Source: a virus
Lineage: Duplodnaviria > Heunggongvirae > Uroviricota > Caudoviricetes
IMG/VR virus record: IMGVR_UViG_3300045988_006100
Location: 1-45,080 of that record
Strand: one strand, 5' to 3'
DNA length: 45,080 nt
The notes below the pieces were generated by a model. That model did not search any database. It was not told where the DNA came from and saw only the letters and a list, made by a program, of their open reading frames with translations. The position numbers and the translations under genes are program-made. Each line of letters begins with the position of its first letter. The stretch's first letter is position 1. Below, piece after piece: positions 3,389 to 40,410 of the stretch.

Positions 3389-3430
3389 GAACAAAAATGA
3401 GAAAAATGATACGCTGCTGTGTAGCAGCGT
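3389..3430 (-). terminator. putative rho-independent terminator
   Basis: Hairpin ACGCTGCT-GTGT-AGCAGCGT followed (on - strand) by a T-rich tract; downstream of gene 3465..3653. Confidence 0.5.
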
Positions 3431-3464
3431 AAGTCACAAAGCCAAATAGTAAACTATTGGCCTG

Positions 3465-4073: not shown

Positions 4074-4292
4074 TCATGATTCGATGCCGTTGTGAATGAT
4101 GCGGAAACAACATTGAAGAAAACTAACGGTTAAAGTCTCGCCCACAGTGTCCTCTAAATCCCATTCATCACCGTCTTCATCTAAAACGTATCGACGGCCG
4201 TCGTAATATACTCCTGACGAATATTTGTTACCTTTCACAAACCAATCCTGCACATCCTGGCGGGATTCAATACAAATTAATTCTTCCATCAC
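4074..4292 (-). CDS. hypothetical acidic protein
   Basis: 72-aa ORF, first gene of leftward block. Confidence 0.4.
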   Translation of the reverse strand: MMEELICIESRQDVQDWFVKGNKYSSGVYYDGRRYVLDEDGDEWDLEDTVGETLTVSFLQCCFRIIHNGIES

Positions 4293-4460
4293 TTCACCCC
4301 TTTGAATTTAAAATTGTTGCCGATGAGTTCTAAATTATCGCGTGAGGCGAACCCAGTTTTCTTTCTTACCAGACCCCATACGTCAACCAGATTATCCTCC
4401 GCGTTTAGTTTTAACCAACTGACCCTTCTTAAGCATAACCCTCACTCCTCTGTCTCGTTT

Positions 4461-4500
4461 CGATAAGTGAATAGTATCCTATTATGTTGGGGTGTGCAAG
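4461..4500. promoter_or_regulatory. conserved promoter/operator element (family member A), possibly bidirectional
   Basis: GTGAATAGT-N4-CTATTAT core followed by GGGGTGTGCAAG; reverse complement reads TTGCAC-N17-TACTAT; sits at the divergence point of the left and right arms. Confidence 0.45.
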
Positions 4501-4677
4501 AGAATAGTTACGTTGCCGTTGTGATTCTTTCGTTTCTTAAAAGAGTACGCAACGCAGTGGGTGGGCGTTAGCCCACCCCAGCGGAGTGAAGTACTCTCTA
4601 CCTTGCTCACGGCAACTATAGAAACTTTTAATTATCCGTGACTTGGATATTTAGGCGGGATTAACAATAGACTTTGA

Positions 4678-4808
4678 CCCTTCCGAAAGCGTCAGCGGAA
4701 CTACACTCAAGTGCCTAATGGCACGCGTTGCGTTCCCTGCCGCTCCGCGGTCGCTTGCGATATCTCACAAGCTCAGTGAAGCTTAGCATATTTTCAAGTA
4801 AAAGTCAA
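4678..4808 (+). repeat. conserved ~130-bp non-coding element, copy 1 (copy 2 at 37458..37587)
   Basis: About 80% identity to 37458..37587, with identical blocks CCCTTCCGAA, GCGTCAGCG, AACTACACTCA, CCGCGGTCGCTTG, TCACAAGCTCAG. Confidence 0.7.
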
Positions 4809-4913: not shown

Positions 4914-5084
4914 ATGACTATCAATGAAGTTGCAGAATTAATCGGCGTCACCCGCCAGACAATCAATAACTGGATTAAGAGTGGAAAGTTTCCTGATTGC
5001 AGCGTTAAAGTAATGGGGCGCCGTTTACCAGGAACATTTGACCGTAATAAAGTTGAAGCGTGGATTAAGGAGAACGTGAAATGA
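4914..5084 (+). CDS. AlpA/excisionase-like HTH DNA-binding protein
   Basis: ATG at 4914 with AGGAGA SD; segment INEVAELIGVTRQTINNWIKSGKFP is a typical HTH. Confidence 0.55.
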   Translation: MTINEVAELIGVTRQTINNWIKSGKFPDCSVKVMGRRLPGTFDRNKVEAWIKENVK

Positions 5085-5371
5085 AAGGTGTAATTTTCCA
5101 CGATAAAGAAAATGACAGTGCTTATATGGTCTATTTAGTGCAAGGTGAGTATGCGTTGTGTTTTAACGTTTCCTGTAAACTGGACTCATATTTGCCGTTT
5201 TGCGTTACAGAAGAATTGCAGTCGATTAGTCTAAGAAGACTCAGCACAATGTCGGCTTCCATCGATGTCTCCGACCACCTATCCTACGTTTATCAGTATT
5301 TCGGTGATGAGATTGTCGCAGATTATTATCGTAAGTACGCACATTTGATGGAATGTCTGGCTAAAAGATAA
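5081..5371 (+). CDS. hypothetical protein
   Basis: 96-aa ORF, ATGA overlap with upstream gene. Confidence 0.45.
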   Translation: MKGVIFHDKENDSAYMVYLVQGEYALCFNVSCKLDSYLPFCVTEELQSISLRRLSTMSASIDVSDHLSYVYQYFGDEIVADYYRKYAHLMECLAKR

Positions 5372-5429
5372 AAGAAAGCCCCGACGCGGTGAACGCCGAG
5401 GCCAAATTATTTGCTGAAGGAAATACAAC

Positions 5430-7697
5430 ATGTCCGATGTAATTTTATCCTACTCGTGGTCACGTCGCAACGCGCGGGCAGAGAAAAAGGATATAAACGT
5501 CAGAACCACACACACGGCAACACTGGATGACCTGAAAGAGTTAATCCAGCCGCTCGATGCTGTTCGTGACGGGATCAACCCGAAGACAGCGCCAGGCTAT
5601 ATTACTGCCGCGTGCGACTCTGCGCACAGCACTGTAAAAGACCCGGAAACCGGTGACTTTAAGCAAGCGCGTAAAGGCTTCTTCTATCGCTGTGACGCGT
5701 CTGTGAGCAAATCGTCGCTGGCGTATCTGGACTTCGACAGTGCAACACCGGAAGAGTACCAGGAAGCGGTGCGCCTGGTTAATCGCAGCCGCCGGGCGAT
5801 GTGTCTCTACACCACGGCATCACATACCGATGAGTCACCGCGCTTTCGCGTCGTCATGCCGCTGAGCCGCCCGGTTGAAGGCGGCGACATCATCCGTGTT
5901 CGTCATGGCTTGCTGGAGCACTTCTTCGAAGGCATGGGCGCTGACCGCAGCGGGTTCACTCTGTCGCAGCCGATGTACCTGCCGCCGGTCGGCGCTACCG
6001 TTATCTGGTCGCGCCGCAACGACCTGATCGACCCGAACGAGTTACTGGAAGGCATCCCAGCCGTTGACGTTAGCAGCGCATCGGATTACCAGATACCGGA
6101 AGAACTGCGCACCGCGTTTACAGACGCGTTTGAAGCACTGGCGTTTGAGTACGGCGGCGTCATGACGCCGCGCGGCCTTAAGATGCCAGCCACACCGGAA
6201 CATGCCGAAAACTACAGCGACCCGACACCGCGCCCGGACGACTTCCTGCTGTGCTTCCCGCGCGAGGGGTATGAAGCGCCAAACGTAACCATGATTCACG
6301 ACACAGACATTACGGCGACAGAAGGCCTGTCACCGAAAGAGGTGTGGAAGTACGCGTGCGATGCGACCGGGCTGCCGTTCAGTGAAGTCGCAGAGGCCAT
6401 CGGTTGGGGGGCGCGTGAATCTGTCTCATGCAGCCTCGACGACCTGGAAGACGACGAGGACTCAGAGGAGGACGAGTTACCGGAGCCGGTAAAGGCTGAT
6501 TTCGTCGTTGAGGGGTACATGCCGTCGGATTGTATCTGGGGTATCGTCGGAGAATCGGGCACGTACAAATCATTCTATACGCTGGGGATGATGTACCTGA
6601 GCGCCGCCGGATACCGGTTTGCAGGGGCTGACACCCAGCGTTGTCACCATTTCTATATCGACGGCGAGGGTGGGGCAGCCACACGTACACGTATTGATGC
6701 GCTCGCGGCTAAATACGGCGAGGAATGTAAAGATTATGTACATGTCATCGATATGGGCGAAGTCGGCAAACTTAAAAGCCTGATTAAGTTAATGCGCGAA
6801 ACTGCTGGCGACGAGCCAATTGGCATGGTTGCGTTCGACACCCTTAACCAGACCCTGGCACTGACGATTGATAAGTTCGACGAGAACAGTTCATCAACAG
6901 CAATCGGCATGGGTAAAGTTATCGCCATTCTGAAAGAAGTACGCGATGCAACTAAAGCCGCAGTAGGCGTTGTCCACCATACGCCGAAGGGTGGAAAGAA
7001 AGCACGCGGCAGTGGAGCGCTGTATGCGGGTGTTGACGTGGAACTGACAATCGAACGTGCAACCGACCGTCAGATAAACGTATATCACTCGAAATTCAAG
7101 CACGGGCCTCAGCAGAAGACGGTTGGCATGGTGCTGGAGTCGGTACAGTTCCGTGAAGCGCCGCCGCCTAAAGAATACCGAGCGGTTGAGTTCCTGGGTA
7201 GCACAGAGGAATACGGCACAATCGTAAACCTGGACCTGCCTGAACCACACAAGGCGCTTGTGTTGATGCCGTGGGGTTTCGAGCCGTTCAAAACTGACGA
7301 GGAGAAAGAGCGGGAAGAAGGGTTGACGAAAGAAGGTAAAGAAAATGTACGTAAAACCGTAGAGAACGCCGTCAACAGTTCGGAGGCCACGATACTCGCG
7401 GCGTTTGAACTGGCGGAAGGAACCTACAACGGCAACGAAGGCATCACAGTCGCCGCGGCGAATAAGCTCGCACAGTCAGACCCCAACGCAAAGGCGTTTA
7501 ACTCCAAAGAAGCCATAGAACGCGGGAAGATTAAGAAAATGGTTGAGGCCGGGTATCTTGTTCCGGGTACTGACGAAAACAATCAGATAATCCCAGGTCG
7601 TTACAGGCTGAACACCAGAATAACTGATAACAAGATTCCAAAGACAATATACGAACCGAATGAAATGTTGACAGTGACAGAGGAGGATTTGGAATGA
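5430..7697 (+). CDS. putative primase-helicase (AEP-like N-terminal domain plus RecA/DnaB-like ATPase)
   Basis: 755 aa; N-terminal YLDFDS...ASH...RFRVV pattern (primase-like); C-terminal Walker A GESGTYKS, Walker B VAFDTL, VVHHTPKGG. Confidence 0.6.
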   Translation: MSDVILSYSWSRRNARAEKKDINVRTTHTATLDDLKELIQPLDAVRDGINPKTAPGYITAACDSAHSTVKDPETGDFKQARKGFFYRCDASVSKSSLAYLDFDSATPEEYQEAVRLVNRSRRAMCLYTTASHTDESPRFRVVMPLSRPVEGGDIIRVRHGLLEHFFEGMGADRSGFTLSQPMYLPPVGATVIWSRRNDLIDPNELLEGIPAVDVSSASDYQIPEELRTAFTDAFEALAFEYGGVMTPRGLKMPATPEHAENYSDPTPRPDDFLLCFPREGYEAPNVTMIHDTDITATEGLSPKEVWKYACDATGLPFSEVAEAIGWGARESVSCSLDDLEDDEDSEEDELPEPVKADFVVEGYMPSDCIWGIVGESGTYKSFYTLGMMYLSAAGYRFAGADTQRCHHFYIDGEGGAATRTRIDALAAKYGEECKDYVHVIDMGEVGKLKSLIKLMRETAGDEPIGMVAFDTLNQTLALTIDKFDENSSSTAIGMGKVIAILKEVRDATKAAVGVVHHTPKGGKKARGSGALYAGVDVELTIERATDRQINVYHSKFKHGPQQKTVGMVLESVQFREAPPPKEYRAVEFLGSTEEYGTIVNLDLPEPHKALVLMPWGFEPFKTDEEKEREEGLTKEGKENVRKTVENAVNSSEATILAAFELAEGTYNGNEGITVAAANKLAQSDPNAKAFNSKEAIERGKIKKMVEAGYLVPGTDENNQIIPGRYRLNTRITDNKIPKTIYEPNEMLTVTEEDLE

Positions 7698-7891
7698 GCG
7701 GTAAATTTAAAGAAGTAAGCGACGAACTGAAAGGTAATAAATACACCAACCACAGAGGCGAAGTAGTAGAAGTTCTTAACGTAGTTCCTTATGGGCGCGG
7801 GTATCATGTTGTGTTCAGTTACACAGAGGCTTACAGCGTGTACTGCGGGTTAGGTAAGTTTCGCAAAAGATACCCGATAAAGGTGCAATAA
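7694..7891 (+). CDS. hypothetical protein
   Basis: 65 aa; ATGA overlap and GAGGAGG SD embedded in upstream gene end. Confidence 0.45.
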   Translation: MSGKFKEVSDELKGNKYTNHRGEVVEVLNVVPYGRGYHVVFSYTEAYSVYCGLGKFRKRYPIKVQ

Positions 7892-7916
7892 AAAGAAAGG
7901 GGCGTCAAGCCCCTTC
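7885..7916 (-). terminator. putative rho-independent terminator
   Basis: Hairpin GGGGC-GTCAA-GCCCC with T-rich tail on - strand; between convergent genes 7694..7891 and 7905..8120. Confidence 0.5.
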
Positions 7917-8120
7917 ACCGAACGCCAGCCACTTAGCGTCTACTTCCAGCACTTCCGCCAGTTTAAACAACGTTGCCGGGCGGACGTCCTGAGTTACACC
8001 GAGAGCCAGCTGGTTAATTGCGCCCTGGGAGACACCGGCCAGGACAGCCAGACGGCGCTGGGAGATGCCGAGTTCTTTACGGCGTTGCTCTACACGGATG
8101 CCTAGTTCGGATGGTTGCAT
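7905..8120 (-). CDS. XRE-family (Cro/CI-type) HTH transcriptional regulator
   Basis: 71 aa; ELGISQRRLAVLAGVSQGAINQL is a classic HTH_XRE segment; AAGGAG SD; sole leftward gene inside the rightward block. Confidence 0.7.
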   Translation of the reverse strand: MQPSELGIRVEQRRKELGISQRRLAVLAGVSQGAINQLALGVTQDVRPATLFKLAEVLEVDAKWLAFGEGA

Positions 8121-8140
8121 GTCAATTACTCCTTAGTCAG

Positions 8141-8170
8141 TTGATGTGTGAATAGTACCATATTAATTAT
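8141..8170. promoter_or_regulatory. operator/promoter-like element (family member G) upstream of XRE gene
   Basis: GTGAATAGTACCATATTA core; lies between XRE start and rightward promoter D. Confidence 0.4.
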
Positions 8171-8184
8171 TTTAGAAAAGCCCA

Positions 8185-8213
8185 TTGACAAGTGAATAGT
8201 TCGCTATTATAGT
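8185..8213 (+). promoter_or_regulatory. sigma70-like promoter (family member D)
   Basis: TTGACA-17 nt-TATAGT with internal GAATAG/CTATT inverted repeat; 29 nt upstream of gene 8242. Confidence 0.6.
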
Positions 8214-8241
8214 TAGCCCATACCAAACGAGAGGTGAAGAT

Positions 8242-8469
8242 ATGAACATAATCACTGGAGCTATAACTAAATGTTTCCGGGTAATTTTCGGTGAACCGCA
8301 AGAAGTATGCACTAACCATAAATTTGTACTTTCTTGCGTAGTCGGGGACGAGTTTGACGGATTCGATAAACTGGTGGTTTGCGACCATTGCGGGCAAGAA
8401 GCTATCCAACACTCAAACGGTAAATTTGAATTAATAGACGATAGCCTTACAGAAGGCGACGGCGAGTAA
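8242..8469 (+). CDS. hypothetical Cys-rich protein
   Basis: 75 aa; good SD GAGAGGTGA; its 3' end contains inverted-repeat copy 2. Confidence 0.5.
   Translation: MNIITGAITKCFRVIFGEPQEVCTNHKFVLSCVVGDEFDGFDKLVVCDHCGQEAIQHSNGKFELIDDSLTEGDGE
8381..8440. repeat. 60-bp perfect inverted repeat, copy 2 (partner 3304..3363)
   Basis: Exact reverse-complement identity to 3304..3363; here encodes the C-terminal ...DHCGQEAIQHSNGKFELID of gene 8242..8469. Confidence 0.9.
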
Positions 8470-8491
8470 CCTAAATAAACAGGAGAAACAA

Positions 8492-8992
8492 ATGTTAGAA
8501 CAATTCTTAAAATTACTGGAACGTTTCGTAGTTGCACATGAACTGATTGCTGCGAACAGTGCGAAACAGTCAGCACAAGTTGCAGCGCCGTTAGAAGTAG
8601 AGACGGTAGTGTATACCAAAGAAGCGGTAGCTGAGTGCGAAAAAGAAGCAACAAAAGAAATCCCTGTTGAAGGTGAAGACATCGTTGACGCTAAACCAGC
8701 AGAAGAAGAGAAGCCGAAACGCAAGCCGCGTAAAGCTAAAGTAGAGGAGCCGACTCCAGAACCAGAAGAAGAGAAAGAAGAGGTCGATTACCAGTCTCTT
8801 CGTGACCAGATTCAGGCTATCGACGATGCAATTAACGAAGGTCCTAGCGATGCTGCGTGCGACGATTCCGATGAACTGCTGGAGGAGTTCACCGGTAAGA
8901 AAATGAAGATTGCCGCGATTAAAGACGAAGACCTGGCTGAATACCTGAAACGCCTGACGGCGATTAAGAACAAGTATTTCGAAGAAGAATAA
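8492..8992 (+). CDS. hypothetical highly acidic protein
   Basis: 166 aa, strongly E/D-rich with a lysine-rich patch; AGGAGA SD. Confidence 0.5.
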   Translation: MLEQFLKLLERFVVAHELIAANSAKQSAQVAAPLEVETVVYTKEAVAECEKEATKEIPVEGEDIVDAKPAEEEKPKRKPRKAKVEEPTPEPEEEKEEVDYQSLRDQIQAIDDAINEGPSDAACDDSDELLEEFTGKKMKIAAIKDEDLAEYLKRLTAIKNKYFEEE

Positions 8993-9289
8993 TTTATCTG
9001 GCGGCCTCCGGGCCGCTTTAACAGAGGGTCGTAATATGATTTACCAACTCTACCGAGGTATTGACTGACGGGATAACACAGAGGCGTTGTGGCTGTTGCG
9101 TGCGCCGTCCGGCGCGCACCAGATGGAAGAGATGGCCTACCTCGGCAAAGTACCGAAGCCGAAAGATATAGGCCGTCACCTGTCGCAGATTAAGCGCACG
9201 ACATTCGTTAAAAGTGACTTTTATGTCTTCGAGTCGATGCATTGTGACCACAAGACACGACATTTAATTGACCAGTGGGAGAACAGGGT

Positions 9290-9637
9290 ATGACCGATAA
9301 ATGGTGGCTTAATCTGCGTAGTGGCGACAAGGTTTACACAGTCGGCGACCGCAGAAAGAGCAGCGGCGTAGCTACTGTGTTACAAAACGGCAAAAAGTAC
9401 ATTCACATTGTGCATGAAGCTCGTGCGCTCCGCGTGAATAAATCGTCTGGCAGGCTTGAGGATTACCCGAAAACATTAATATATAAAAGTGAAAAGCATC
9501 ACATGGACGCTGTTGACGTAAGACGTCAGTTCGCAGGAATGTTGCAACAGTTAAGCGACTTACATCGCGATGATTCTTTCATTCCTACAGAAGAACAGTT
9601 ACAGGCATTAAACTTGTATTTGGAGAGTTTACGATGA
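9290..9637 (+). CDS. hypothetical protein
   Basis: ATG at 9290 (ORF open from 9275); ATGA overlap with downstream nuclease gene. Confidence 0.4.
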   Translation: MTDKWWLNLRSGDKVYTVGDRRKSSGVATVLQNGKKYIHIVHEARALRVNKSSGRLEDYPKTLIYKSEKHHMDAVDVRRQFAGMLQQLSDLHRDDSFIPTEEQLQALNLYLESLR

Positions 9638-10875
9638 TTCTTAAAGAACGCGGCGGCAATAACGATGTACATGCCTTACTGTCGCCGTCAGGGGCTAAAA
9701 AGTGGCTAAGTTGCGCGGCATCACTGGCCTGTGAAAAAGATATCCCTAACACGTCAGGTAAAGCCGCTGTATTAGGCACGGCAATGCACACCATAGCTGA
9801 GGTCCATCTCAACGCTTATATTCGCGGAACTGCGCTGCCGTTAGAGCGTGAAGTCGGTGCTTACGTGCTGGATGAAGGCAAAGGCCAGATTAAGGCACTA
9901 ATCAGCCCGATGAAAGGCGCGGTACTGATTACGGCGGACATGATTGAGCAGGTGCGCAAGTACACCGACTACTGCAAAGCGATTATAGACGTAGCGACTT
10001 ACGCCAAGCTGGAAATGCGTGTTAATCTTACTGAGGTATTGCATCCGGGGTATGAAGGCGTTGAGACGTTCGGAACCGCTGACCTCGTTGCTGTCCAGGA
10101 ACTGGCAAACACCGACGAGCACATGCTCATTATCGGCGACCTGAAAACCGGGCGGCATCGCGTCGAAGCGAAAGAAAACAAGCAGCTTATGCTTTACGCT
10201 CTCGGTGTTTATCGTCGACTCAAGAGACGTTATAGCATAACAACCGTTCGTCTGGTCATCTTCCAGCCTTACGCTGGGGGTGCGACAGAGTGGGACATCT
10301 CGGTTGAAGGACTGGAACTGTTCGCTAAGTTCGCACAGAAACGCGCGCTGTTAGCGCTTGATGCTTATTTCCGCGGCAAGAAGGACCTGAAAGCGTCAGA
10401 CTTTAAGCCGTCGGTAGATGGTTGCCAGTGGTGCCGGTTCTCTGAACAATGCGCCGCGCGTACAAAAACCGTTAACTCTGTACTGGCTGAAGAACTGGAG
10501 GACGACTTTGCACTTGAGCTTACGCCAGAGCAACTCGTAGCTGAGTATGAGAAGTTGCCGTTGTTGCGCCAGCACATCGACAAGGTTGAGAAAGCTATGG
10601 CTGCTGCGTTACATTCCGGTAAGAAAGTGCCGGGGTATAAACTGGTTGAAGGACGCCCGGGTAATCGTGCGTGGAAAGATACCGATGCAGTATTCGAGAA
10701 GTACGGTACTATGCTGCAAAAGGTAGTTCTTATGACACCGACCGAAGCGGTTAAAATTGTACCGGAAGAAGAACTGAAAGACTTCATTACCCGTAAGCCC
10801 GGTGCGCCATGCGTCGCAACGGCGGATGACAAACGTCCTGAGTGGAATCAAGTTACAGAGGAGGATTTAGAATGA
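9634..10875 (+). CDS. PD-(D/E)XK nuclease, Cas4/RecB-like exonuclease
   Basis: 413 aa; DLV...IIGDLKTG nuclease core and C-terminal Cys cluster CQWCRFSEQC typical of Cas4-like phage exonucleases. Confidence 0.65.
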   Translation: MILKERGGNNDVHALLSPSGAKKWLSCAASLACEKDIPNTSGKAAVLGTAMHTIAEVHLNAYIRGTALPLEREVGAYVLDEGKGQIKALISPMKGAVLITADMIEQVRKYTDYCKAIIDVATYAKLEMRVNLTEVLHPGYEGVETFGTADLVAVQELANTDEHMLIIGDLKTGRHRVEAKENKQLMLYALGVYRRLKRRYSITTVRLVIFQPYAGGATEWDISVEGLELFAKFAQKRALLALDAYFRGKKDLKASDFKPSVDGCQWCRFSEQCAARTKTVNSVLAEELEDDFALELTPEQLVAEYEKLPLLRQHIDKVEKAMAAALHSGKKVPGYKLVEGRPGNRAWKDTDAVFEKYGTMLQKVVLMTPTEAVKIVPEEELKDFITRKPGAPCVATADDKRPEWNQVTEEDLE

Positions 10876-11075
10876 TTCAAGTAAATGAAATGCCGACTGA
10901 TAAAGATTTTTTGATGGTATGGCGCTGGGATGGGTATCTACACTCGGAATCGTTCACGTTCTTGAACGGTACCATGATGCGATACTACCCTGTAGAGGAT
11001 GAGTTCGAACCGGCCAATATGCTTAATTTCGAGAACATAATCCCTATTGCAAAATTTTATTTGACACATGAATAG
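10872..11075 (+). CDS. hypothetical protein
   Basis: ATG at 10872 with GAGGAGG SD inside upstream gene end (same 21-nt cassette as at 7677..7697). Confidence 0.45.
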   Translation: MIQVNEMPTDKDFLMVWRWDGYLHSESFTFLNGTMMRYYPVEDEFEPANMLNFENIIPIAKFYLTHE

Positions 11076-11088
11076 TTAGCTATTATAG
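11060..11088 (+). promoter_or_regulatory. sigma70-like promoter (family member E)
   Basis: TTGACA-17 nt-TATAGT, same core as D; 60 nt upstream of SSB-like gene. Confidence 0.55.
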
Positions 11089-11147
11089 TTCTAATCACTG
11101 GCCGGGCAGATCCCGGAGTAAACTGAAACTGAAAAGCGAGAAATCAA

Positions 11148-11777
11148 ATGGGACTGAAATTAAATCTGCGTAAAGTAAACACTGCCTGGGTTAACGTATT
11201 CGAACGCGAAAAAGACCGTGAAAACGACGATGGATCAATCACTAAAGGTCAGTACAGCGCAACGATTATCCTGCCGTCTGACCATGCTCAAATCCATGCA
11301 CTCTACGACACCGTTTACACTGTAGTTGAAGAAGCGTTAGGCGCAGCCGCTGCCGAGAAATGGATGAAGTCCAACTACGGTGAAGGTAAGCACATGGATA
11401 AATGCGCGATTAAAGACATTGCCGAGCGCGACAATCCGTTTGAAGACTTCCCGGAAGGCTTCTACTTCAAAGCGAAGGCACAGAAACAGCCGCTGATTGT
11501 AACCTCTAAAAAAGGTGAGACTCAGGTAGAGCAGGACTTCAACGTAGACGGCGAACAGATTGAAGGTGAACAGGTTTACAGCGGATGCTTAGCTAACGTA
11601 AGCGCTGAAATCTGGTTCAGCCAGAAATACAAAGTCCTCGGCGTTAACCTGCTGGCGATTAAATACGTTGGCGAAGGCAAAGCGTTCGGCGGTTCTAAAG
11701 TTGCGGCCAGCGTCAACGACCTGGAAGACGACGAAGAAGATGAAGCACCGCGCCGCGAACGTCGTCGCCGTGGTTAA
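11148..11777 (+). CDS. putative ssDNA-binding protein (DUF2815/T7 gp2.5-like)
   Basis: 209 aa with acidic C-terminal tail DLEDDEEDE; position between nuclease and polymerase; assignment from memory of family. Confidence 0.45.
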   Translation: MGLKLNLRKVNTAWVNVFEREKDRENDDGSITKGQYSATIILPSDHAQIHALYDTVYTVVEEALGAAAAEKWMKSNYGEGKHMDKCAIKDIAERDNPFEDFPEGFYFKAKAQKQPLIVTSKKGETQVEQDFNVDGEQIEGEQVYSGCLANVSAEIWFSQKYKVLGVNLLAIKYVGEGKAFGGSKVAASVNDLEDDEEDEAPRRERRRRG

Positions 11778-11797
11778 TATCTGAATCTGTTTAACTA

Positions 11798-11820
11798 AGG
11801 CCCTTCATTGGGCCTTTTTA
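11798..11820 (+). terminator. rho-independent terminator
   Basis: AGGCCC-TTCATT-GGGCCT hairpin followed by TTTTT. Confidence 0.7.
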
Positions 11821-11836
11821 CTAAGGGTCGAAAATA

Positions 11837-12115
11837 ATGGCAGCGGAACTTAAGAGATACAGACGCATCACATACTGCAAATTTTGTAAGGCAGAAGGTA
11901 AAAAAGTTAGAGCAATTTGGATGACTAAATACCCTCCAGCTTACGGTGTACGAGACTGGTATAAACACTATGCATGCGAGGAGCATAAACATTTAATAGA
12001 AGACACAGACCCAGACCGGACTTGGGCAGAAATCATAGAACGCGGTAAAAACAAGAAACAAGATCGCGACGACCATCTCACAGAAGCAGACTATCAGACG
12101 TGGTACAGACTATGA
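11837..12115 (+). CDS. hypothetical zinc-binding protein
   Basis: 92 aa; CKFCK...CEEH pattern. Confidence 0.45.
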   Translation: MAAELKRYRRITYCKFCKAEGKKVRAIWMTKYPPAYGVRDWYKHYACEEHKHLIEDTDPDRTWAEIIERGKNKKQDRDDHLTEADYQTWYRL

Positions 12116-14295
12116 ACACATTGCTTTACTTAGACTTTGAAACCTACAGCGACATCGATTTGAAGAAAGTAGGTTCCTACGCTTACGCTGAACACCCGTC
12201 AACCGAAGTGCTTATCTGTACCTATGCTTTTGACGAAGAGCCTGTGCAGGTATGGGATTGCACCGACGGCAGCGACATGCCGGGGGATTTGCACCGCGCA
12301 CTGCGCCGCCTTGTTAAGCCCAACAGCCGCATCAAGATTGTGTGGCACAACGGTGGACTTTTCGATCGCCTAATCATGAAACACTGCTGGGGCTTTGATA
12401 TTCCGGTAAGTAACACCATTGATACTATGATTTGGGCGTTCCGTCACGCGCTGCCGGGTTCTCTTGATGCGCTGTGCGAAGTGCTGGGCGTGTCTGCAGA
12501 CAACGCGAAAGATAAACGCGGCAAGGCTCTGATTAAGCGTTTCTCTAAACCGACGCCGAAGAACTACAAAATCCGCCGCTACACCGCAGAAACTCACCCT
12601 GACGAGTGGGCGATGTTCATCAGGTACGCCGTGAGCGACATCACTGCGATGCGGGAAGTGTTCCATAAGCTACCGCGTTGGGGTAACTCGGAGTTTGAGG
12701 ACCGTGTACTGGAACTGGACCAGTTAATCAACGACCGCGGGTTTAGGGTTGACGTTGCACTTGCGGAAGCTGCGATTGAGGCCGTAGAGAAGCACAAGGC
12801 CCAGCTACAGGAAGAAGCCCAACGCAAATACGGCGGCTCGCTTACTGGAAAGGATTTTCTACCAATTCTGCGTGAACTGGCACCTGCGCATCGAATCCAC
12901 AACGCGCAGAAGTCGACGCTGAATGACCTGTTGGCAGATGATGATTTACCGGACGACGCCCGGATGATTATCGAAATGCGCCTCGGGGCCGCGTCAACAG
13001 CGTCCACGAAATATAACCCGCTGCTGTTAGGCCGCTCGTCGGACGACCGACGCCGCGGTTGTATCCAGTACGGTGGGGCAAAGCGTACGTTACGGTTCGC
13101 GGGTAAAGGCTTCCAGCCACAGAACCTGGCACGTGGGTACTATCACGATGATGAACTGGATAAAGGCATTTCAGCGTTACTTAAGGGCCGGGCGCACCGC
13201 CGATTTGACGTAGCCAAGCTGACGGCATCTACCGTTCGTAGCTGCATTATACCGGAAGCTGGGCATAAGTTTGTCGTCGCCGATTACTCTAACGTTGAGG
13301 GTCGCGGGCTTGCGTGGCTGGCAGGCGAAGAAACCGCGCTAGATACGTTCCGCTCCGGACTGGATATTTACTGCGTAACAGCAGGTAAGATGTTTGGCAT
13401 GGAGCCGGATTACATTAAGAAAGAACGTAAAGACTTACGCCAGATTGGTAAAGCCTGCGAATTGGGCCTCGGATACGCGGGCGGTGTCGGTGCTTTCGTT
13501 CAGTTCGCTAAAAATCTCGGCCTTGACCTGGTTGATATGGCTAAAACAATGGACGGTACTTTCCCGGACCATATATGGGCCGCTACTGCACGCGGGTATG
13601 AATGGGCGCGTATTCAGGAAGCAAAGAGACCGCCGCGTCCCGGTGAAAAGGATGACCGACCATCATATATTCTTGGTAAGAAAGTGTGGCGTACCTGTGA
13701 CGCTATCAAGCGCATGTGGCGGGAGTCCCACCCGGAAACAGTAGCTTTCTGGCGTGATATTGAAGACGCAGCTATGGCAGCAATCCGTAATCCGGGGAAA
13801 GAGTTCACAGCTGGCCCTCGCGGGGTTAAGTTTTCTCGCAACGTAGAAACAGACAACAACGGCAACAAAGTCGCTGGTTGGTGGTTGCGCATGACGTTGC
13901 CGTCAGGTCGCGTTATGTCATACCCGGGCGTCGGGTTGAGCGTGTCAAAAGAGACAGACGAAGACGGAAAAGTTTCTACTAACGTGCGCATCAAGTATCA
14001 GGGTGAAAATCAGTTAACCAGGCAGTGGGGCTTCCAGTACACCTACTCCGGTAAACTGGTGGAAAACTGCACTCAGGCATTGTGCCGTGATTTGCTGGCT
14101 AATGCCCTGCTGAACGTAGAAGCAAACGGCTACCCGATTGTACTTCACGTACACGATGAGATTATCTGCGAGACACCAGATTCACCGGAATACAATGTAG
14201 CAGAGCTTGAGCGGTTGATGTGCGAATTGCCGGAATGGGCGGAGGGGTTCCCTCTTGTAGCTGAAGGTGCGGAGATGAAGCGATATGCCAAGTAA
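12112..14295 (+). CDS. DNA polymerase, family A, with 3'-5' exonuclease domain
   Basis: Exo motif LDFETYSD; Pol A motifs DYSNVEGR (A), RQIGKACELGLGYAGG (B), HVHDEII (C); ATG at 12112 overlaps upstream stop (ORF open from GTG 12100). Confidence 0.85.
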   Translation: MNTLLYLDFETYSDIDLKKVGSYAYAEHPSTEVLICTYAFDEEPVQVWDCTDGSDMPGDLHRALRRLVKPNSRIKIVWHNGGLFDRLIMKHCWGFDIPVSNTIDTMIWAFRHALPGSLDALCEVLGVSADNAKDKRGKALIKRFSKPTPKNYKIRRYTAETHPDEWAMFIRYAVSDITAMREVFHKLPRWGNSEFEDRVLELDQLINDRGFRVDVALAEAAIEAVEKHKAQLQEEAQRKYGGSLTGKDFLPILRELAPAHRIHNAQKSTLNDLLADDDLPDDARMIIEMRLGAASTASTKYNPLLLGRSSDDRRRGCIQYGGAKRTLRFAGKGFQPQNLARGYYHDDELDKGISALLKGRAHRRFDVAKLTASTVRSCIIPEAGHKFVVADYSNVEGRGLAWLAGEETALDTFRSGLDIYCVTAGKMFGMEPDYIKKERKDLRQIGKACELGLGYAGGVGAFVQFAKNLGLDLVDMAKTMDGTFPDHIWAATARGYEWARIQEAKRPPRPGEKDDRPSYILGKKVWRTCDAIKRMWRESHPETVAFWRDIEDAAMAAIRNPGKEFTAGPRGVKFSRNVETDNNGNKVAGWWLRMTLPSGRVMSYPGVGLSVSKETDEDGKVSTNVRIKYQGENQLTRQWGFQYTYSGKLVENCTQALCRDLLANALLNVEANGYPIVLHVHDEIICETPDSPEYNVAELERLMCELPEWAEGFPLVAEGAEMKRYAK

Positions 14296-14497
14296 ACTGA
14301 TTATTGCGGTACTGGCGGGATTCGCCGCCGGTGTCTACTGTCACGAGGGTCAATACGGCATGATGGTTGCCGTATTAGGTATGTTAGTAACAATTTATCT
14401 GTGGGTGCTGGAATGAAAATTTACTGGTTCTACGAAGAAGACCGCCGGATCTGTCCGCGCTGTGGTATTGCGCATACGAAACGTGAGGGGTGTGTGG

Positions 14498-14785
14498 ATG
14501 AGTACGCCTGAGGGCAAAATACAGAAATACGCAAAAGACCGATTCGAGGCCATTGGTGGCCTCGTTCGTAAACTTTCCTACGAAGGACGTTCCGGCGCCC
14601 CTGACCTGCTGGTAATTCTCCCCGGCGGCGTCATCTGGTTCGTCGAGATAAAGAAAGACGAAAGCACGAAGCCGGATCCACACCAGTTACGGGAGCACGA
14701 GCGGATGCGTAAGCGTGGTGCTAATGTTTTTGTCGTTGGTTCGTTTAAACAGGTTGACGCCCTAATAGCGAACTATTATAGTTAG
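14498..14785 (+). CDS. VRR-NUC domain nuclease
   Basis: GRSGAPDLLVIL...WFVEIK pattern typical of VRR-NUC; ATG at 14498 with GAGGGG SD. Confidence 0.65.
   Translation: MSTPEGKIQKYAKDRFEAIGGLVRKLSYEGRSGAPDLLVILPGGVIWFVEIKKDESTKPDPHQLREHERMRKRGANVFVVGSFKQVDALIANYYS
14754..14782 (+). promoter_or_regulatory. sigma70-like promoter (family member F)
   Basis: TTGACG-17 nt-TATAGT overlapping the VRR-NUC 3' end. Confidence 0.5.
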
Positions 14786-14815
14786 TCCTACACCAACAAT
14801 ATAAGGAATTGAGAA

Positions 14816-15007
14816 ATGAAACACGAATATGACCGCAAACCAGCACGTGACATCGTACCTGGCGACATGATTTTCAACGTTAAGACCCGTCGGCCTGTTG
14901 CCGTTGATACGGTGTACGTCGAGTCGAACGGTAAACTGGTTATCGAAGATGTAACCGGTAACGTTACGGCGTTCGGGCGTAAAGAGTTAGTTCTGGTGGC
15001 AAAATGA
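14816..15007 (+). CDS. hypothetical protein
   Basis: 63 aa; SD GGAATTGAG; ATGA overlap with methyltransferase gene. Confidence 0.45.
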   Translation: MKHEYDRKPARDIVPGDMIFNVKTRRPVAVDTVYVESNGKLVIEDVTGNVTAFGRKELVLVAK

Positions 15008-15933
15008 ACTATTACAACGAATGGGATAAAGGCGCAGCCGCGTGGCTGCGTGAATTAATAAAACAGGGTCACATACCTTTTGGAGTTGTAGATGAAAGAA
15101 GCATTACTGAAGTTAAGCCAGAAGACCTCGACGGATTCACCCAGTGTCATTTTTTCGCTGGTATCGGCGGCTGGCCTCTCGCGCTCAGACTTGCGGGAGT
15201 TCCGGAAGATACGCCTCTCTGGACGGGAAGCCCGCCTTGCCAACCGTTTAGCACGGCAGGAAAGCAACTCGGACAGTTCGACCCGAGACACCTCGCGCCC
15301 GTATTCCTTGACCTCATCAGCGAGTGCCACCCTCCAGTCCTCTTTGGGGAACAGGTTGCGCCAGCAATTGCAAAATCGTGGATGTGCGATTTACAAACTC
15401 ACCTGGAAGGAGAAGACTACGCCGTCGGGTTTGCCGTACTCCCAGCTTGTAGCGTCGGCGCTCCGCACAAAAGAGAACGACTTTTCTTCGGCGCGCATAG
15501 ATTGGCCCACGCCAGCAGTATCACTGATAACAAACGACGTGAACATGCGCAGCACAGACGGCAGGACGAAACCGAACAAACTGGGGTGGGCCGCCGCGAT
15601 GACGGCATGGGCGACGCCGACCGCGAACGATTACAGAGGGAGCGGAGAGACAGTGATTCGCAAGGACGGAAAGGACCGGACTTTCGACAGGCTGGACTAC
15701 TCAACGGAGCAGGGACTGAAAATATCGCGACCAATCCGCATCACGGCTTCTGGTCAGAGGCAGACTGGCTCGGATGCCGGGATGGAAAATTCAGGCCAGT
15801 TGAACCCGGCACATTCCCGCTGGCTGATGGGATACCCGCCAGAGTGGGACGATTGCGCGGTTACGGCAATGCCATCGTCCCGCAAGTAGCTGCTGAATTT
15901 ATAAAGGCATTCATGGGGGCGGTAAATGAGTAA
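15004..15933 (+). CDS. DNA (cytosine-5)-methyltransferase; central motifs lie in the +1 frame
   Basis: Frame A: FFAGIGG (I), SPPCQPFS (IV), LFGEQV (VI), GAPHKRERLFF (VIII), GYGNAIVPQVA (X). The +1 frame between ~15494 and ~15855 carries WPTP/WATPTANDYRGSGE and LNPAHSRWLMGYPPEW (IX-like). Confidence 0.7.
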   Translation: MNYYNEWDKGAAAWLRELIKQGHIPFGVVDERSITEVKPEDLDGFTQCHFFAGIGGWPLALRLAGVPEDTPLWTGSPPCQPFSTAGKQLGQFDPRHLAPVFLDLISECHPPVLFGEQVAPAIAKSWMCDLQTHLEGEDYAVGFAVLPACSVGAPHKRERLFFGAHRLAHASSITDNKRREHAQHRRQDETEQTGVGRRDDGMGDADRERLQRERRDSDSQGRKGPDFRQAGLLNGAGTENIATNPHHGFWSEADWLGCRDGKFRPVEPGTFPLADGIPARVGRLRGYGNAIVPQVAAEFIKAFMGAVNE

Positions 15934-17350
15934 GTTTCAAAGGCGTGAGTACCAAAAGCTCATGACTTCGTTCATGCTGCGGCACCATCGCTGCAACATA
16001 TGGGCAAGCATGGGCGCTGGGAAGACTGGCAGCGTACTGTGGGCATTAAACCGACTGTTCCGAAACGGCCAACTTAATGATGACGACCGCGTGTTAATCC
16101 TCGCCCCGCTGCGGGTTGCGTCTGGTACGTGGCCTGCAGAGCAAGAGAAATGGCAATTCCCATGTCTGCGTGTTGTAGATGCGACTGGTTCAGAGAAGCG
16201 CCGCATCGCGGCGCTGGAGTCAGATGCTAACGTGGTTTGCACGAACTATGAGGTTATCGAGTGGCTGATTGACTACTACGGCAAAGACGACTGGCCTTTT
16301 ACGGTTATCGTTGCAGATGAAAGCACGAAGCTTAAATCATTCCGCAGCCGTTCAGGTGGTAGCAAGCGTGCAAAGGCGCTTAGTAAAGTGGCTTTCGGAA
16401 GGGTTAAGCGTTTTATTAACCTGACTGGTACACCGTCACCAAACGGCCTCAAGGATTTGTGGGGCCAGAACTGGTTTATCGACGCTGGCGAGCGCCTAGG
16501 TTCGTCGTATACAGCATTCACCGACCGCTGGTTTAATTCGGTACAGAAAGGAAAATCTGCGATGGCACGTGAATATCACGCCCGCCCTGGTGCAGATAAC
16601 GAGATTCACCAGAAGATGAAGGACATCAGTCTGACGATTGACGCCGCCGAGTGGTTCGGTTGTGAAGCGCCTGTTATCGTGCCGGTTGAAATCGACCTGC
16701 CGAAGAAAGCACGTCAGGCGTACATCGATATGGAGGAGAAGCTATTCGCGGAACTGGAAAGCGGAGAAGTTGAAGCGGCTAACGCTGCGGCGAAGACGTC
16801 GAAGTGTCTGCAGATTGCCTCCGGTGCCGTGTATGTTTCGGGCCCTGACGGCGAAGCAACCAAAGACTGGGAGAAAGTGCACGACACGAAACTGGACGCA
16901 CTGGAGTCCATTGTGGAAGAGTTACAGGGCGCGCCGTTACTGGTGGCCTATCAGTTCAAGCACGAACTGGAGCGCATCCTTAAGCGGTTCCCGCAGGCCC
17001 AGGCATTTGCCAAAGGTGCGAAGGGTAATAAGCAGATGGAAGCGTGGAACCGTGGGGAAATCGAGATTTTATGCGTGCATCCTGCGTCAGCCGGGCATGG
17101 TTTGAATTTACAGGACGGGGGTCATCATCTGGCGTTCATCTCGCAAGGCTGGAACCTTGAGCACTATTTGCAGGTTGTTGAGCGTATAGGCCCGGTCCGC
17201 CAGAAACAAGCGGGGCACGAGCGACCGGTGTTCCTCTATCACATCGTCGCTAAAGACACGCTGGACGAGGTTGTTACCACACGTACTGACGAGAAGAAAT
17301 CGGTACAGGAAGAGTTGCTTAATTACATGAAGAGACGAGGTAAGAAATGA
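15926..17350 (+). CDS. SNF2-family helicase
   Basis: Walker A MGAGKTGS, DExx box IVADEST, LTGTP motif, helicase-C HGLNLQDGGH. Confidence 0.8.
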   Translation: MSKFQRREYQKLMTSFMLRHHRCNIWASMGAGKTGSVLWALNRLFRNGQLNDDDRVLILAPLRVASGTWPAEQEKWQFPCLRVVDATGSEKRRIAALESDANVVCTNYEVIEWLIDYYGKDDWPFTVIVADESTKLKSFRSRSGGSKRAKALSKVAFGRVKRFINLTGTPSPNGLKDLWGQNWFIDAGERLGSSYTAFTDRWFNSVQKGKSAMAREYHARPGADNEIHQKMKDISLTIDAAEWFGCEAPVIVPVEIDLPKKARQAYIDMEEKLFAELESGEVEAANAAAKTSKCLQIASGAVYVSGPDGEATKDWEKVHDTKLDALESIVEELQGAPLLVAYQFKHELERILKRFPQAQAFAKGAKGNKQMEAWNRGEIEILCVHPASAGHGLNLQDGGHHLAFISQGWNLEHYLQVVERIGPVRQKQAGHERPVFLYHIVAKDTLDEVVTTRTDEKKSVQEELLNYMKRRGKK

Positions 17351-17862
17351 TGGATGGCGAGGAGTTACTACTTAAGGCGCATCTGCTGTCACGAGGTTTT
17401 GACGCGGACCGTTTACGTGTAGTCTTAGGCCCTGGAGTAGCTACGTTTTACCTGTGGGGCTTTGACGGTAAGCTACGCGGGTACCAGCATTACAAGCCGC
17501 ATGCTGAAAAGAACTGTAAAAACCCTAAAGACGCGCGGTACTTTACCCGAACAACAAGGCCGTGTTTATGGGGACTTGAGTATTTGCCAAGTAGCGGGGT
17601 GGTATTTGTTACCGAAAGCATATTTAAAGCTGCTGCTTTGATGAATTGCGGGTTTAATGCAGTTAGCGCATTGGGGTCGAACATACCAGCTGACTTACGG
17701 CAGCAAATGTCACTTTTGCCGTATGAATGGGTGTGCGCCGGTGACAGTGATAAAGCTGGATTAAAGTTCAGCAAAACATTCACCAGAGGATTTGTATCTA
17801 ACGACCTTGATGAACTTTGTGAAGAAGAAATAACGTATCTTGCGAGGAAATTTACCAGATGA
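17347..17862 (+). CDS. Toprim-domain protein (primase-like)
   Basis: VFVTESIFKAAAL...CAGDSDKAG resembles a Toprim fold. Confidence 0.5.
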   Translation: MMDGEELLLKAHLLSRGFDADRLRVVLGPGVATFYLWGFDGKLRGYQHYKPHAEKNCKNPKDARYFTRTTRPCLWGLEYLPSSGVVFVTESIFKAAALMNCGFNAVSALGSNIPADLRQQMSLLPYEWVCAGDSDKAGLKFSKTFTRGFVSNDLDELCEEEITYLARKFTR

Positions 17863-28098: not shown

Positions 28099-28139
28099 CT
28101 TGCACACCCTGATATAATAGCGTACTATTCACTTACACC
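28099..28139. promoter_or_regulatory. conserved promoter/operator element (family member B), bidirectional
   Basis: TTGCAC-17 nt-TACTAT on + strand with internal TATAAT; reverse complement carries GTGAATAGT-N4-CTATTAT core; between divergent genes 27992 (-) and 28171 (+). Confidence 0.55.
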
Positions 28140-34954: not shown

Positions 34955-34985
34955 TAGTAAATGAAAAGAGGGACCGAAGTCCCTC
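34955..34985 (-). terminator. rho-independent terminator after major capsid gene
   Basis: GAGGGAC-CGAA-GTCCCTC hairpin with TTTTCATTT tail on - strand. Confidence 0.65.
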
Positions 34986-35002
34986 TCGATTATATCTTAA
35001 CC

Positions 35003-36052
35003 TTAAGCCCCGACACCAGTTACCAGGAAGGCAATCGGTACATGCTTACGGTCAACCACACGGTTCCAGTTGGAAGCGTTCGCCAGGTCCTGCCAGGAAG
35101 CAGAGCGGGCGATAGTCTCGGTGCCGTTGCCGGTGATTACAGTGCTGGTGAAACTGTAACCAAACGGATGCAGCAACCAGGTCTTACGGGTCCACAGGGT
35201 TTCGACACCACCACCGTTACCGCGAGACGCTTCGCGCTCGTATTCCAGCGGGTTTGACGGAGAACCTTCGCCGTAACCGATAGCACCGTTGCCGAAGATG
35301 ATGGAGATGAACTTACGGCTGTTGCCAGTTCCGACTACGGTCATGCTGTCGTCAACAATCACACGATAGCCCTGGTAGGTGGCGAACATGGTGTTGTTGT
35401 CAGCGTCGCGAATGAAGTCGATAAGCTGCTGCTTACGCGCCTGCGCATAAACGAAGCTGTGCATCGCGATAGCGCCAAGCACTTCACCACCGTTACCCAT
35501 CAGCGCATCGCCCATAGTCTGGGTAGCATCGATGAACGCGCCGGAGTCGAAGCCCAGAGTAGCGGACACGTCAATAACCATGTCGTTCTGCTCGTGGTAC
35601 GCATCGGTAGCCGCTACGTTATCATTGTACAGACCGAGCGCGGTAGCAATAAGACGGCGTTGTGCCTGACGCTGCCAGAAGTTATCCAGACGGGAAGCCA
35701 CGGATTGCAGCGGATTCTGGCTGGTCAGTTCTACCGTCAGGTCAGCCTGACCAAAACCTTCGTTCAGGTAAGCTACGCGAACATCCATCTCACCGGTTTG
35801 CACGTTACGCGGGGTGGCGACGTCCTGATATACGTCGTTCGAGTAGTTCGGCTCGATAGAGGTATCAATAGCTTTCCAGTACGGCAGGACCGCTTTGTTG
35901 GACGGGCCGTTTGCGATAGCGGCGGCATACGGAGTCGAGGTAAGGATACCGGACTGGAAGAACGCGGTTTTCTCTACCGGGTCCTCTGTCATGTAGGACA
36001 GGATTACCGATTCTTTACCAGTTACGATGTCGCCGATAGTAGTAATTGCCAT
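35003..36052 (-). CDS. major capsid protein
   Basis: 349 aa; preceded by scaffold-like gene and followed by strong terminator. Confidence 0.65.
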   Translation of the reverse strand: MAITTIGDIVTGKESVILSYMTEDPVEKTAFFQSGILTSTPYAAAIANGPSNKAVLPYWKAIDTSIEPNYSNDVYQDVATPRNVQTGEMDVRVAYLNEGFGQADLTVELTSQNPLQSVASRLDNFWQRQAQRRLIATALGLYNDNVAATDAYHEQNDMVIDVSATLGFDSGAFIDATQTMGDALMGNGGEVLGAIAMHSFVYAQARKQQLIDFIRDADNNTMFATYQGYRVIVDDSMTVVGTGNSRKFISIIFGNGAIGYGEGSPSNPLEYEREASRGNGGGVETLWTRKTWLLHPFGYSFTSTVITGNGTETIARSASWQDLANASNWNRVVDRKHVPIAFLVTGVGA

Positions 36053-36756
36053 TATTTTTTCCTCAGGGCTTTAAGTTGCCGTTCAAATTCGGCAGGGTTC
36101 GATTCGTACAGAGCGATACGCTCCGCTTCACTCATGTCTTTAAACGCTGGTGCGGCCCCGCCGCCTTTGCTACCGGAAGCCCCGCCGCCGGAAGCTGCAT
36201 TTGCTTTAATCAAATGTGAAAACGCTTTGTGTTCTCGCAAGTATTTGCGGAACTGTTCCGGGTCAGTCGTGATTACGTTGCCGTCTGCGCCAACAAACTT
36301 AGTAACCACATCATCGCCTTCGAACTCAGTCTTAACGAACGGCGCAAGAATGTCCACTGCTTCTGGGGTAATAAAGTCACCCGCGAAAGAGCCTAGCACC
36401 GCTTTACGTTCGCTGCCGAGGATACGCTCTGCCATTCTGGAGATGCGACCGTCTTTCTCGGCTAACACCGGGTCATACTGGCTACGAATCGTCTTTTCAA
36501 ACTCGTCCATCTTACCGGCAGCCTTTAACGCCTCCTGGTGCGCACGCTGCCGTTCTTCTTCGGCCTCTTTTGCTTTACGGGCGGCTTCTTTCTTCTCCGC
36601 CAGCAATGCTTCCTGATTGGCCTTAAGCCCGGCAACTTCTTTCTCAATCAGCGCCTGAACTTCTTCAGCGGTGAACATTTTAGGAGCGTCACCGCCACCA
36701 GCTTTATCTTCTGCTCCAGCTTCTTTCTGGAACGGATAACGTAAAAAACGATTCAT
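36052..36756 (-). CDS. scaffolding protein
   Basis: Helical, charged, coiled-coil-like; ATG at 36756 (ORF open to 36810); ATGA overlap with capsid gene. Confidence 0.5.
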   Translation of the reverse strand: MNRFLRYPFQKEAGAEDKAGGGDAPKMFTAEEVQALIEKEVAGLKANQEALLAEKKEAARKAKEAEEERQRAHQEALKAAGKMDEFEKTIRSQYDPVLAEKDGRISRMAERILGSERKAVLGSFAGDFITPEAVDILAPFVKTEFEGDDVVTKFVGADGNVITTDPEQFRKYLREHKAFSHLIKANAASGGGASGSKGGGAAPAFKDMSEAERIALYESNPAEFERQLKALRKK

Positions 36757-40374: not shown

Positions 40375-40410
40375 ACTATAAGAAAGCCCCTTTCGGGGCT
40401 ATAGGTGAAC

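Follow-up and report, generated by a model that had tools for sequence, protein, structure and literature searches.

Introduction

The put RNAs of phage HK022 are nascent transcripts that bind the β′ zinc-binding domain of RNA polymerase and suppress pausing and termination without a phage protein. The two copies, putL and putR, are located at the heads of two operons, and a −10-like element has been proposed to aid putL folding (PMC9378689). The nutL and nutR sites of phage lambda are similarly two copies behind two promoters, act as RNA, and carry a hairpin recognized by a factor. Regulation by Q at lambda PR′-tR′ (6S RNA) and by AlpA at Pseudomonas PalpB-tB is organized around a strong, constitutive-looking promoter and a short leader to a terminator, which renders expression of the following lysis and structural genes conditional; these systems employ a DNA-binding protein and a sigma-dependent pause and require no structured leader. 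In phage T7, several related copies of a processing hairpin per genome are found at operon heads.

The present analysis concerns two related copies, A and B, of an element in a 45,080-base stretch of phage DNA (hereafter, the window). Each copy is very probably a non-coding RNA read leftward by the host polymerase from its own near-consensus sigma70 promoter with an extended −10, comprising two hairpins, followed by a later GC-rich hairpin, and placed at the head of an operon. As predicted from sequence, copy B runs directly into the genes for Rz, scaffold, and major capsid protein, and copy A heads an operon of small genes, lysis, terminase, and portal genes. The element is a structured phage leader or regulatory RNA that, by analogy, would work most like put, although no homology to put is detectable in sequence or structure; furthermore, it differs from nut sites in having no boxA and from Q/AlpA promoters in that no Q- or AlpA-like protein was found. 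It appears to be an undescribed RNA family. The phage-genome papers PMC7203180 and PMC9825357 give just predicted promoters and terminators at the locus, one study of a Kagunavirus transcriptome is at gene level only (PMC12645636), and in the genome records inspected the element is either unannotated or mis-annotated as a small ORF.

The Phage and Its Genome Organization

The window is a complete, circularly permuted genome in which bases 1-141 recur at 44940-45080; this exact terminal duplication of 141 bp fits a circularly permuted assembly and not a biological repeat. The phage is a virulent Kagunavirus-type siphophage of E. coli, subfamily Guernseyvirinae, and Escherichia phage vB_EcoS-phiEc4 is 99.7% identical to the window over the queried region. 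On the basis of ORF lists and the annotation of phages K1G and Golestan, the replication genes are rightward (4914-17862) and three blocks are leftward: small genes, lysis, terminase, and portal genes from 4436 through the origin to 37943; Rz, scaffold, capsid, neck, and major tail genes at 37334-30599; and tail genes at 27992-18025. Intrinsic terminators lie within both leftward operons headed by the element (3410-3431, 787-813, 43796-43815, 40385-40400, and 34966-34987). An early protein of 120 aa (9275-9634, plus strand) has a Phage_ProQ_C_like Pfam match below threshold (23.9 bits; cut-off 27) and is a possible RNA-binding protein as judged from its sequence.

In Rfam 15, neither copy matched a family, whether at the gathering score or at E values up to 10. 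The sole Rfam match of the window is int-alpA RNA (RF02996; 28017-28081, minus strand; 36.6 bits against a gathering score of 35.8), which is also found in Golestan (14168-14232, plus strand). It sits between a promoter of the family described below (~28100-28135) and the ATG of the tail operon at 27992, and thus the third leftward operon also starts with a structured leader with a U-rich tail. This spot between promoter and first gene is equivalent to that of the element; in sequence and fold the two RNAs are unrelated, and RF02996 is not matched by the element.

Extent of the Repeat and Its Promoters

The original prediction, made from the window alone, described direct repeats of about 130 bp, about 80% identical, at 4678-4808 and 37458-37587. 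Copy A and B-type copies are indeed 79-80% identical over 147 nt (E ~1e-27), the long identical blocks were recovered in two 301-nt stretches aligning at 78% column identity, and a repeat search within the window found 4665-4709 and 37445-37489 repeated at 89%. The core of the predicted interval was correct, whereas its left edge fell short, since the block reaches ~13 nt further, to 4665 and 37445; the right-hand ~30 nt (4780-4808 and 37559-37587) are conserved as proposed but represent promoter, not RNA. The two sites were also correctly placed in the two largest intergenic regions, both being the largest gaps in a crude ORF map, and each adjoins a member of a promoter family (4460-4500 and 37655-37690). 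The proposed boundary between divergent transcription units is valid for copy A, but the rightward unit at copy B is merely an inserted gene of 67 aa. This gene (37710-37913, plus strand) sits between the head-decoration gene and copy B, on the opposite strand, has a family promoter of its own as well as a bidirectional terminator (37919-37939), is without a Pfam or PHROG match, and is missing from K1G. The features of the two loci are as follows.

4780-4808, minus strand: promoter of copy A, TTGACT-N17-(TGC)TAAGCT with an extended −10 (exact pattern match)
4665-4777, minus strand: copy A RNA (covariance-model match of 94 bits; folds; pair counts)
4753-4772 and 4683-4750, minus strand: hairpins SL1 and SL2 of copy A, joined by a 2-nt linker, with the conserved tail AAGGGUC..GUCUAUUG
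4541-4599, minus strand: long hairpin after copy A (fold), with the GC-rich tip GGGGUGGGC-UAAC-GCCCACCC, then UCUUUUAAG
4465-4500, minus strand: family promoter TTGCAC-N17-TACTAT (sequence; conserved in relatives)
37559-37587, minus strand: promoter of copy B, TTGACT-N17-(TGA)TAAGCT (pattern match; conservation in relatives)
37445-37555, minus strand: copy B RNA (covariance-model match of 135 bits; folds; 96-99% identity across genera)
37530-37550 and 37463-37527, minus strand: SL1 and SL2 of copy B, joined by the linker GA, with the tail AAGGGCC..CUCUAUUG
37379-37444, minus strand: AU-rich spacer of 66 nt after copy B, 95-97% conserved
37359-37378, minus strand: terminator-like hairpin after copy B, GCCCUGCU-UUAA-GGCAGGGC, then UUUACUUAU
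36948-37334, minus strand: Rz, first gene of the Rz-scaffold-capsid operon behind copy B (ORFs; annotation of the K1G and Golestan homologues)
36839-37102, minus strand: Rz1, embedded in Rz (ORFs)

The motif TTGACT-N17-TAAGCT, noted originally on the reverse strand of both copies, occurs at just these two sites in the window. Across ~50 promoter variants the hexamers and the TGn are invariant and the spacer varies, and the copy B promoter was annotated independently as a host promoter by the authors of fBC-Eco01. In both lineages carrying the element, Kagunavirus and Jerseyvirus, the −10 hexamer recurs 3-5 nt downstream as the 5′ arm of SL1 (TAAGCT/TGAGCT and TACGCT/TACGCT, respectively), and an inverted repeat, AAGCTC-N5-GAGCTT, with conserved arms and a variable centre, spans the −10 and the start site. 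The same strand of the Rz-capsid-major tail operon contains no other near-consensus sigma70 promoter, and in K1G the preceding operon closes with a strong terminator ~65 nt ahead of the copy B promoter. The location of the element behind these promoters at operon heads is consistent with the original suggestion that the copies could be 5′ leaders of the leftward operons.

The family promoter at 4465-4500 is, by its sequence, the putative promoter of the leftward operon downstream of copy A, and the unit recurs at 37655-37690 (plus strand) and 28100-28135. Sites of this family at 4460-4500, 8141-8214, 11061-11090, 14754-14783, 28100-28135, and 37655-37690 comprise a partly palindromic, bidirectional unit of ~40 bp with the core GAATAGT..ACTATTC, reading TTGACA-N17-TATAGT one way and TTGCAC-N17-TACTAT the other way. 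The unit has been treated as a promoter of a phage RNA polymerase in a published genome paper (PMC9825357). Since neither the scanned proteins nor the annotation of close relatives include an RNA polymerase, the family promoter may double as an operator.

Structure of the RNA and Covariation

On the minus strand, both copies fold into two hairpins within the first ~95 nt of the RNA: SL1, which is short and starts a few nt at most from the predicted 5′ end, and, after a 2-nt linker, the long and irregular SL2. SL2 is closed by CCG/CGG and comprises a bulged lower stem of ~17 bp, a conserved asymmetric internal loop of 5/7 nt (5′ RAGC / 3′ AGYGUA), and an upper stem of 5-6 bp, the tip of which covaries freely. 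A K-turn reading of the internal loop was discarded on inspection, as the canonical strand order is not matched. The stem-loop recognized originally in the variable segment on the plus strand (GTGCC-TAAT-GGCAC versus GGAC-TTAC-GTCC) is retained as described, and it is the tip of a far longer hairpin with more compensatory changes between copies A and B, including A-U/C-G, G-C/U-A, and the entire tip, with some G·U pairs possible on the minus strand only.

Homologues were gathered from a phage collection, IMG/VR, and metagenomes, and comprise at least eight sequence types, the tips of which are wholly different and always paired (GGGAC/GUCCU, GUGCC/GGCAC, GGUGC/GCACU, GGGGC/GCCCU, CGGAC/GUCCG, CACGU/ACGUG, and CACG/CGUG). 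A covariance model, R1, was built from 14 genuine sequences and recovered 45 copies; its alignment replaced one by MAFFT/RNAalifold over all types, in which the A5 and A6 types were misaligned and the structure was only partly recovered. In the Kagunavirus-only alignment, 97.1% of cells are paired, as compared with 30-38% with slid partners, 10 pairs vary on both sides, and in 500 shuffles the observed values were never attained; a control alignment by MAFFT, based on sequence only, gives 97.0% paired. With both lineages combined (44 distinct sequences, model-based alignment), 95.7% of cells are paired versus 29-38% with slid partners, and 17 of the 28 pairs, four of them in SL1, vary on both sides, with 124 both-side-change cells against 29 ± 5.6 in shuffles. 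Single-sequence folds, performed independently for Kagunavirus and Jerseyvirus types, yield the same architecture. The covariation analysis and folding proposed with the original prediction therefore reveal pairing changes that go well past the single hairpin.

Pairing depends on the strand: read as minus-strand RNA, 97.1% of cells are paired and there are 106 G·U cells against five A·C cells, whereas reading the plus strand lowers the paired share to 86.8%. Owing to this excess of G·U pairs on the minus strand, the selected structure is the leftward-read RNA, in agreement with the promoter; the strong covariation and the strand asymmetry together bear out a structured RNA beyond a mere repeat. 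A structured DNA, replication, or packaging site, also considered originally, is disfavored by the strand-specific pairing, the promoter directly upstream, and the distance of copy B from the terminase genes. Copy A lies between divergent early operons beside the replication genes, as an origin might, but the conserved promoter reads into the element and copy B is within the structural gene block. Several database records annotate an ORF of 36-38 aa across copy B (window 37429-37539, minus strand; fBC-Eco01 gene 09; UTI89UKE1_018); however, it has no ribosome-binding site, its start codon is missing in copy A and in the Jerseyvirus type, and near-identical B variants carry 1-nt indels inside it, so that the "hypothetical protein" across the RNA is probably spurious. 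A DNA-level site (origin, packaging, or cruciform) or a small protein-coding gene is consequently a highly improbable explanation.

The shape of SL2 bears on another reading, in which SL2 would be an RNase III-type site and/or SL1 would shield the 5′ end from decay. The succession of lower stem, asymmetric internal loop, and upper stem in an irregular hairpin fits the T7 R1.1 type, related copies at the heads of transcription units resemble the T7 pattern, and SL1 begins close enough to the predicted 5′ end for a stabilizing role. The element differs from the T7 hairpins in its position directly at a promoter and not between genes. A simple stabilizer needs neither conserved loop and tail sequences nor 96-99% identity over 200 nt, and processing or stability would leave the downstream hairpin and the optional copy A unexplained; such an mRNA processing or stability element is unlikely.

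Distribution and Conservation

Copy B is found upstream of Rz in 181 phage records, 178 of which are at least 95% identical over 261 nt, and a second, A-type copy occurs in ~43 records; Rz homologues were found in 507 records. The B leader is 96-99% identical across genera, as compared with 77-95% for Rz, scaffold, and capsid. A diverged form occupies the same place in 269 Salmonella Jerseyvirus records (33-36 bits, E ~1e-7 to 1e-6), in all of them as a single copy. Conservation in related phages, the comparison originally called for, thus extends to a total of ~450 sequenced Kagunavirus and Jerseyvirus phages that carry the element. The Jerseyvirus promoter is the homologous TAGACT-N17-TGC-TACGCT, and SL1 is a different hairpin, UACGCU-UUC-AGCGUA. 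The Jerseyvirus RNA retains the outer stem of SL2, the loop motif, and the CGGAAGGGCC..CUAUUGCUU tail, but its SL2 has another middle stem and carries GGGCGC/GCGCCC or GGGCGU/ACGCCC at the tip.

Copy A is an optional duplicate. At the A locus of K1G (36680-36900) and SETP13 (35990-36300), unrelated promoter-plus-hairpin modules are found between retained flanks, and the A slot is, as far as sequence comparison indicates, a recombination hot spot for promoter-plus-hairpin cassettes. The B-locus copy of one relative (2184-2330 of its record) has B-type flanks and an A2-type core, which suggests recombination or gene conversion between copies.

No copy of the element was found in 5,426 complete E. 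coli genomes. CP088689.1 (44,086 bp), filed as an E. coli plasmid from blood, contains both copies and is a phage genome. Eleven viral contigs from an 18-mer scan showed no homology and were dismissed as chance matches, as were four further matching sequences (chance or pattern matches). In more distant relatives (11 sequences; ~330 nt upstream of Rz), other leader types that do not align with the element occupy the locus. In the GRNsp27-like leader, the promoter TGGACT-N17-TGA-TAACCT precedes a hairpin at the 5′ end, the hairpin CGCC-GCAA-GGCG, a further, long hairpin, and the tail CGGAAGGG. The GUAA-capped leader combines a consensus promoter with the hairpin AAGAUGC..GCAUCUU and a long hairpin that has a GGCC-GUAA-GGCC cap and a covarying stem. 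Model R1 gives no match to either leader; both may share one wider class with the element.

Downstream Hairpins and Spacers

Each locus has, 60-110 nt past the RNA, a GC-rich hairpin whose tail contains U residues. After copy A, the hairpin at 4541-4599 is a modeled candidate for a terminator or 3′-end hairpin, and across phages the A locus has three unrelated GC-rich hairpins at one position, followed by the family promoter and the first gene. Between an A-type element and its hairpin, a (CTCA)n run of ~6 versus 3 units occurs in Golestan (~37800-37835) and two others. The copy B hairpin ends 24 nt before the Rz start codon (37334), and its stem covaries (GCCCUGC/GCAGGGC versus GCCCCGC/GCGGGGC) with variable loops. 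An ARNold terminator prediction exists for this hairpin in fBC-Eco01. Kagunavirus has a modest U tract here (UUUACUUAU) and Jerseyvirus a poor one (UUAGCGUAU), and the hairpin may be an inefficient terminator. Within the B spacer, a weak promoter, TTTACT-N16-TATGTT, was predicted by the software of other authors.

These hairpins are central to the main alternative reading, scarcely less probable than the one preferred below, in which the element would be a stand-alone small RNA gene. Its product, made from the promoter of the element, would be a discrete RNA of ~195 nt (B) or 210-230 nt (A) in which a single-stranded, AU-rich stretch joins the structured domain of ~110 nt to the hairpin and its U tail. 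Such an RNA would work in trans, through base-pairing or through a host or phage protein that it binds or sequesters, with the operons expressed from their own promoters or by leaky read-through. Both loci share the logic of such a cassette, having their own promoter, the RNA, and the hairpin 60-110 nt on. At A, a separate promoter follows, K1G and SETP13 swap the cassette while the flanks stay, and the three unrelated hairpins at one position suggest selection for a 3′ end. At B, the conserved spacer with its predicted weak promoter would fit as well, but merely 24 nt separate the hairpin from the Rz ATG, and that sole candidate promoter between the RNA and Rz is weak (4/6 + 4/6), with a −35 not conserved in Jerseyvirus, so that the capsid operon would be left without a strong promoter. 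Neither a terminator nor an Hfq-type 3′ end would be well served by these U tails, least of all by those of Jerseyvirus. Moreover, a scan of the phage genome detected neither long complementarity to other phage transcripts nor any conserved across copy types; the only non-trivial match of at least 12 nt to an mRNA strand is 13 nt long, specific to copy A, and in a Hoc-like gene.

Comparison With Known Systems

The likeness to put lies in the presence of two related copies per genome at the heads of long operons, with a promoter upstream and terminators downstream, and in two adjacent irregular stem-loops with a very short linker (here 0-2 nt) that are supported by covariation. Furthermore, compensatory changes distinguish the copies, a −10-like hexamer is tied to the promoter-proximal copy, and no dedicated antiterminator protein is recognizable. 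By contrast, when the HK022 immunity region was searched with model R1 with filters off, there was no match at putL (~4205-4300, minus strand) or putR (~5445-5530, plus strand), the best match elsewhere in the region having 14.6 bits. The element is also longer (~88-95 nt versus ~70-74 nt for put), SL2 is far longer than put stem II, the phage is virulent and non-lambdoid, and one copy is optional; an action on RNA polymerase is a prediction by analogy.

A related reading is that the element is a loading site for a phage antiterminator or regulator of the nut/N, Q, or AlpA type, in which the RNA or AAGCTC-N5-GAGCTT would attract a phage protein able to modify the polymerase or to repress the promoter. 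The conserved loop sequences suggest recognition by a specific factor, and the inverted repeat that spans the −10 and the start site, its arms conserved around a variable centre, could be bound similarly. Many small early proteins are without assigned function, and a gene for an HTH_17 protein adjoins copy A. This protein, however, has 56 aa as compared with >140 residues for AlpA and shows no similarity to AlpA structures, and no N-, Q-, or AlpA-like protein was found by Pfam and PHROGs among 30 small proteins, many without assigned function. In contrast to lambda nut, the element has neither boxA nor a sequence-conserved boxB-like hairpin: boxA (CGCUCUUA / GCUCUUUAACAA) has no exact match in the window, and matches with two mismatches are at chance level, with none near the copies. 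Regarding the pause element of Q and AlpA promoters (TAnnnT; AlpA needs the consensus A), the Jerseyvirus repeat TACGCT has A2 and T6 but follows the −10 by only 3 nt, whereas the Kagunavirus repeat TGAGCT lacks the essential A and departs from this consensus. A sigma-dependent pause element was therefore set aside for the Kagunavirus type, in which the feature is treated as a −10/SL1 repeat. As Q and AlpA systems, moreover, need no structured nascent RNA, a loading site of this kind is quite improbable.

A Proposed Cis-Acting Leader for Antitermination

The reading tentatively preferred here is that the element is a cis leader that, by analogy with put, would let RNA polymerase read through downstream terminators. 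The folded nascent RNA would act in cis on the polymerase that made it, and the modified polymerase would resist the hairpin terminator just downstream and the internal intrinsic terminators of the long operons. This mode would be RNA-mediated processive antitermination like that of HK022 putL/putR, without membership of that family, and transcription from this promoter alone would reach the capsid and packaging genes efficiently.

Antitermination is favored because two copies head two operons and their adjacent hairpins start at the 5′ end, like those of putL; because terminators must be passed, namely the B hairpin before the Rz ATG and the internal ones; because the preceding operon is terminated and the capsid operon has no other near-consensus promoter; because no antiterminator protein is recognizable; and because in both lineages the 5′ arm of SL1 repeats the −10 hexamer, which is reminiscent of the −10-like element of putL. 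The copy of the capsid operon is universal and near-invariant, whereas the copy backed by a second promoter is variable and optional, as would be predicted for a cis-acting element. Several observations argue against it. Since model R1 has no match at HK022 put, the likeness is one of analogy only. The U tracts are weak, and a weak promoter is predicted in the B spacer, all 66 nt of which are as conserved as the hairpins, whereas a put-like function alone needs no such conservation. The promoter after the hairpin at the A locus and the module swaps in K1G and SETP13 look like an independent cassette, and internal terminators are common in phage operons lacking any antitermination system.

Perspectives

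The finding is real, reaches well past the window, and is biologically meaningful. In ~450 phages, many of which are under development for therapy or food safety, no stretch around the capsid operon is more conserved than the element, and its covariation appears unusually clear. If it is a cis antiterminator, RNA-only control of processivity would extend from a few lambdoid prophage relatives to a large virulent group, and the element would provide a compact, portable read-through module. A bolder and rather doubtful proposal, also drawn by analogy, is that it represents a second, evolutionarily independent class of protein-free RNA antiterminators in virulent Guernseyvirinae and a master switch for capsid and packaging genes, in which a two-hairpin nascent RNA would reprogram the RNA polymerase of E. 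coli or Salmonella. Should the element instead be a stand-alone RNA, it would represent a phage non-coding RNA that is both abundant and under high constraint. Either reading would explain the wiring of the structural operon in these phages.
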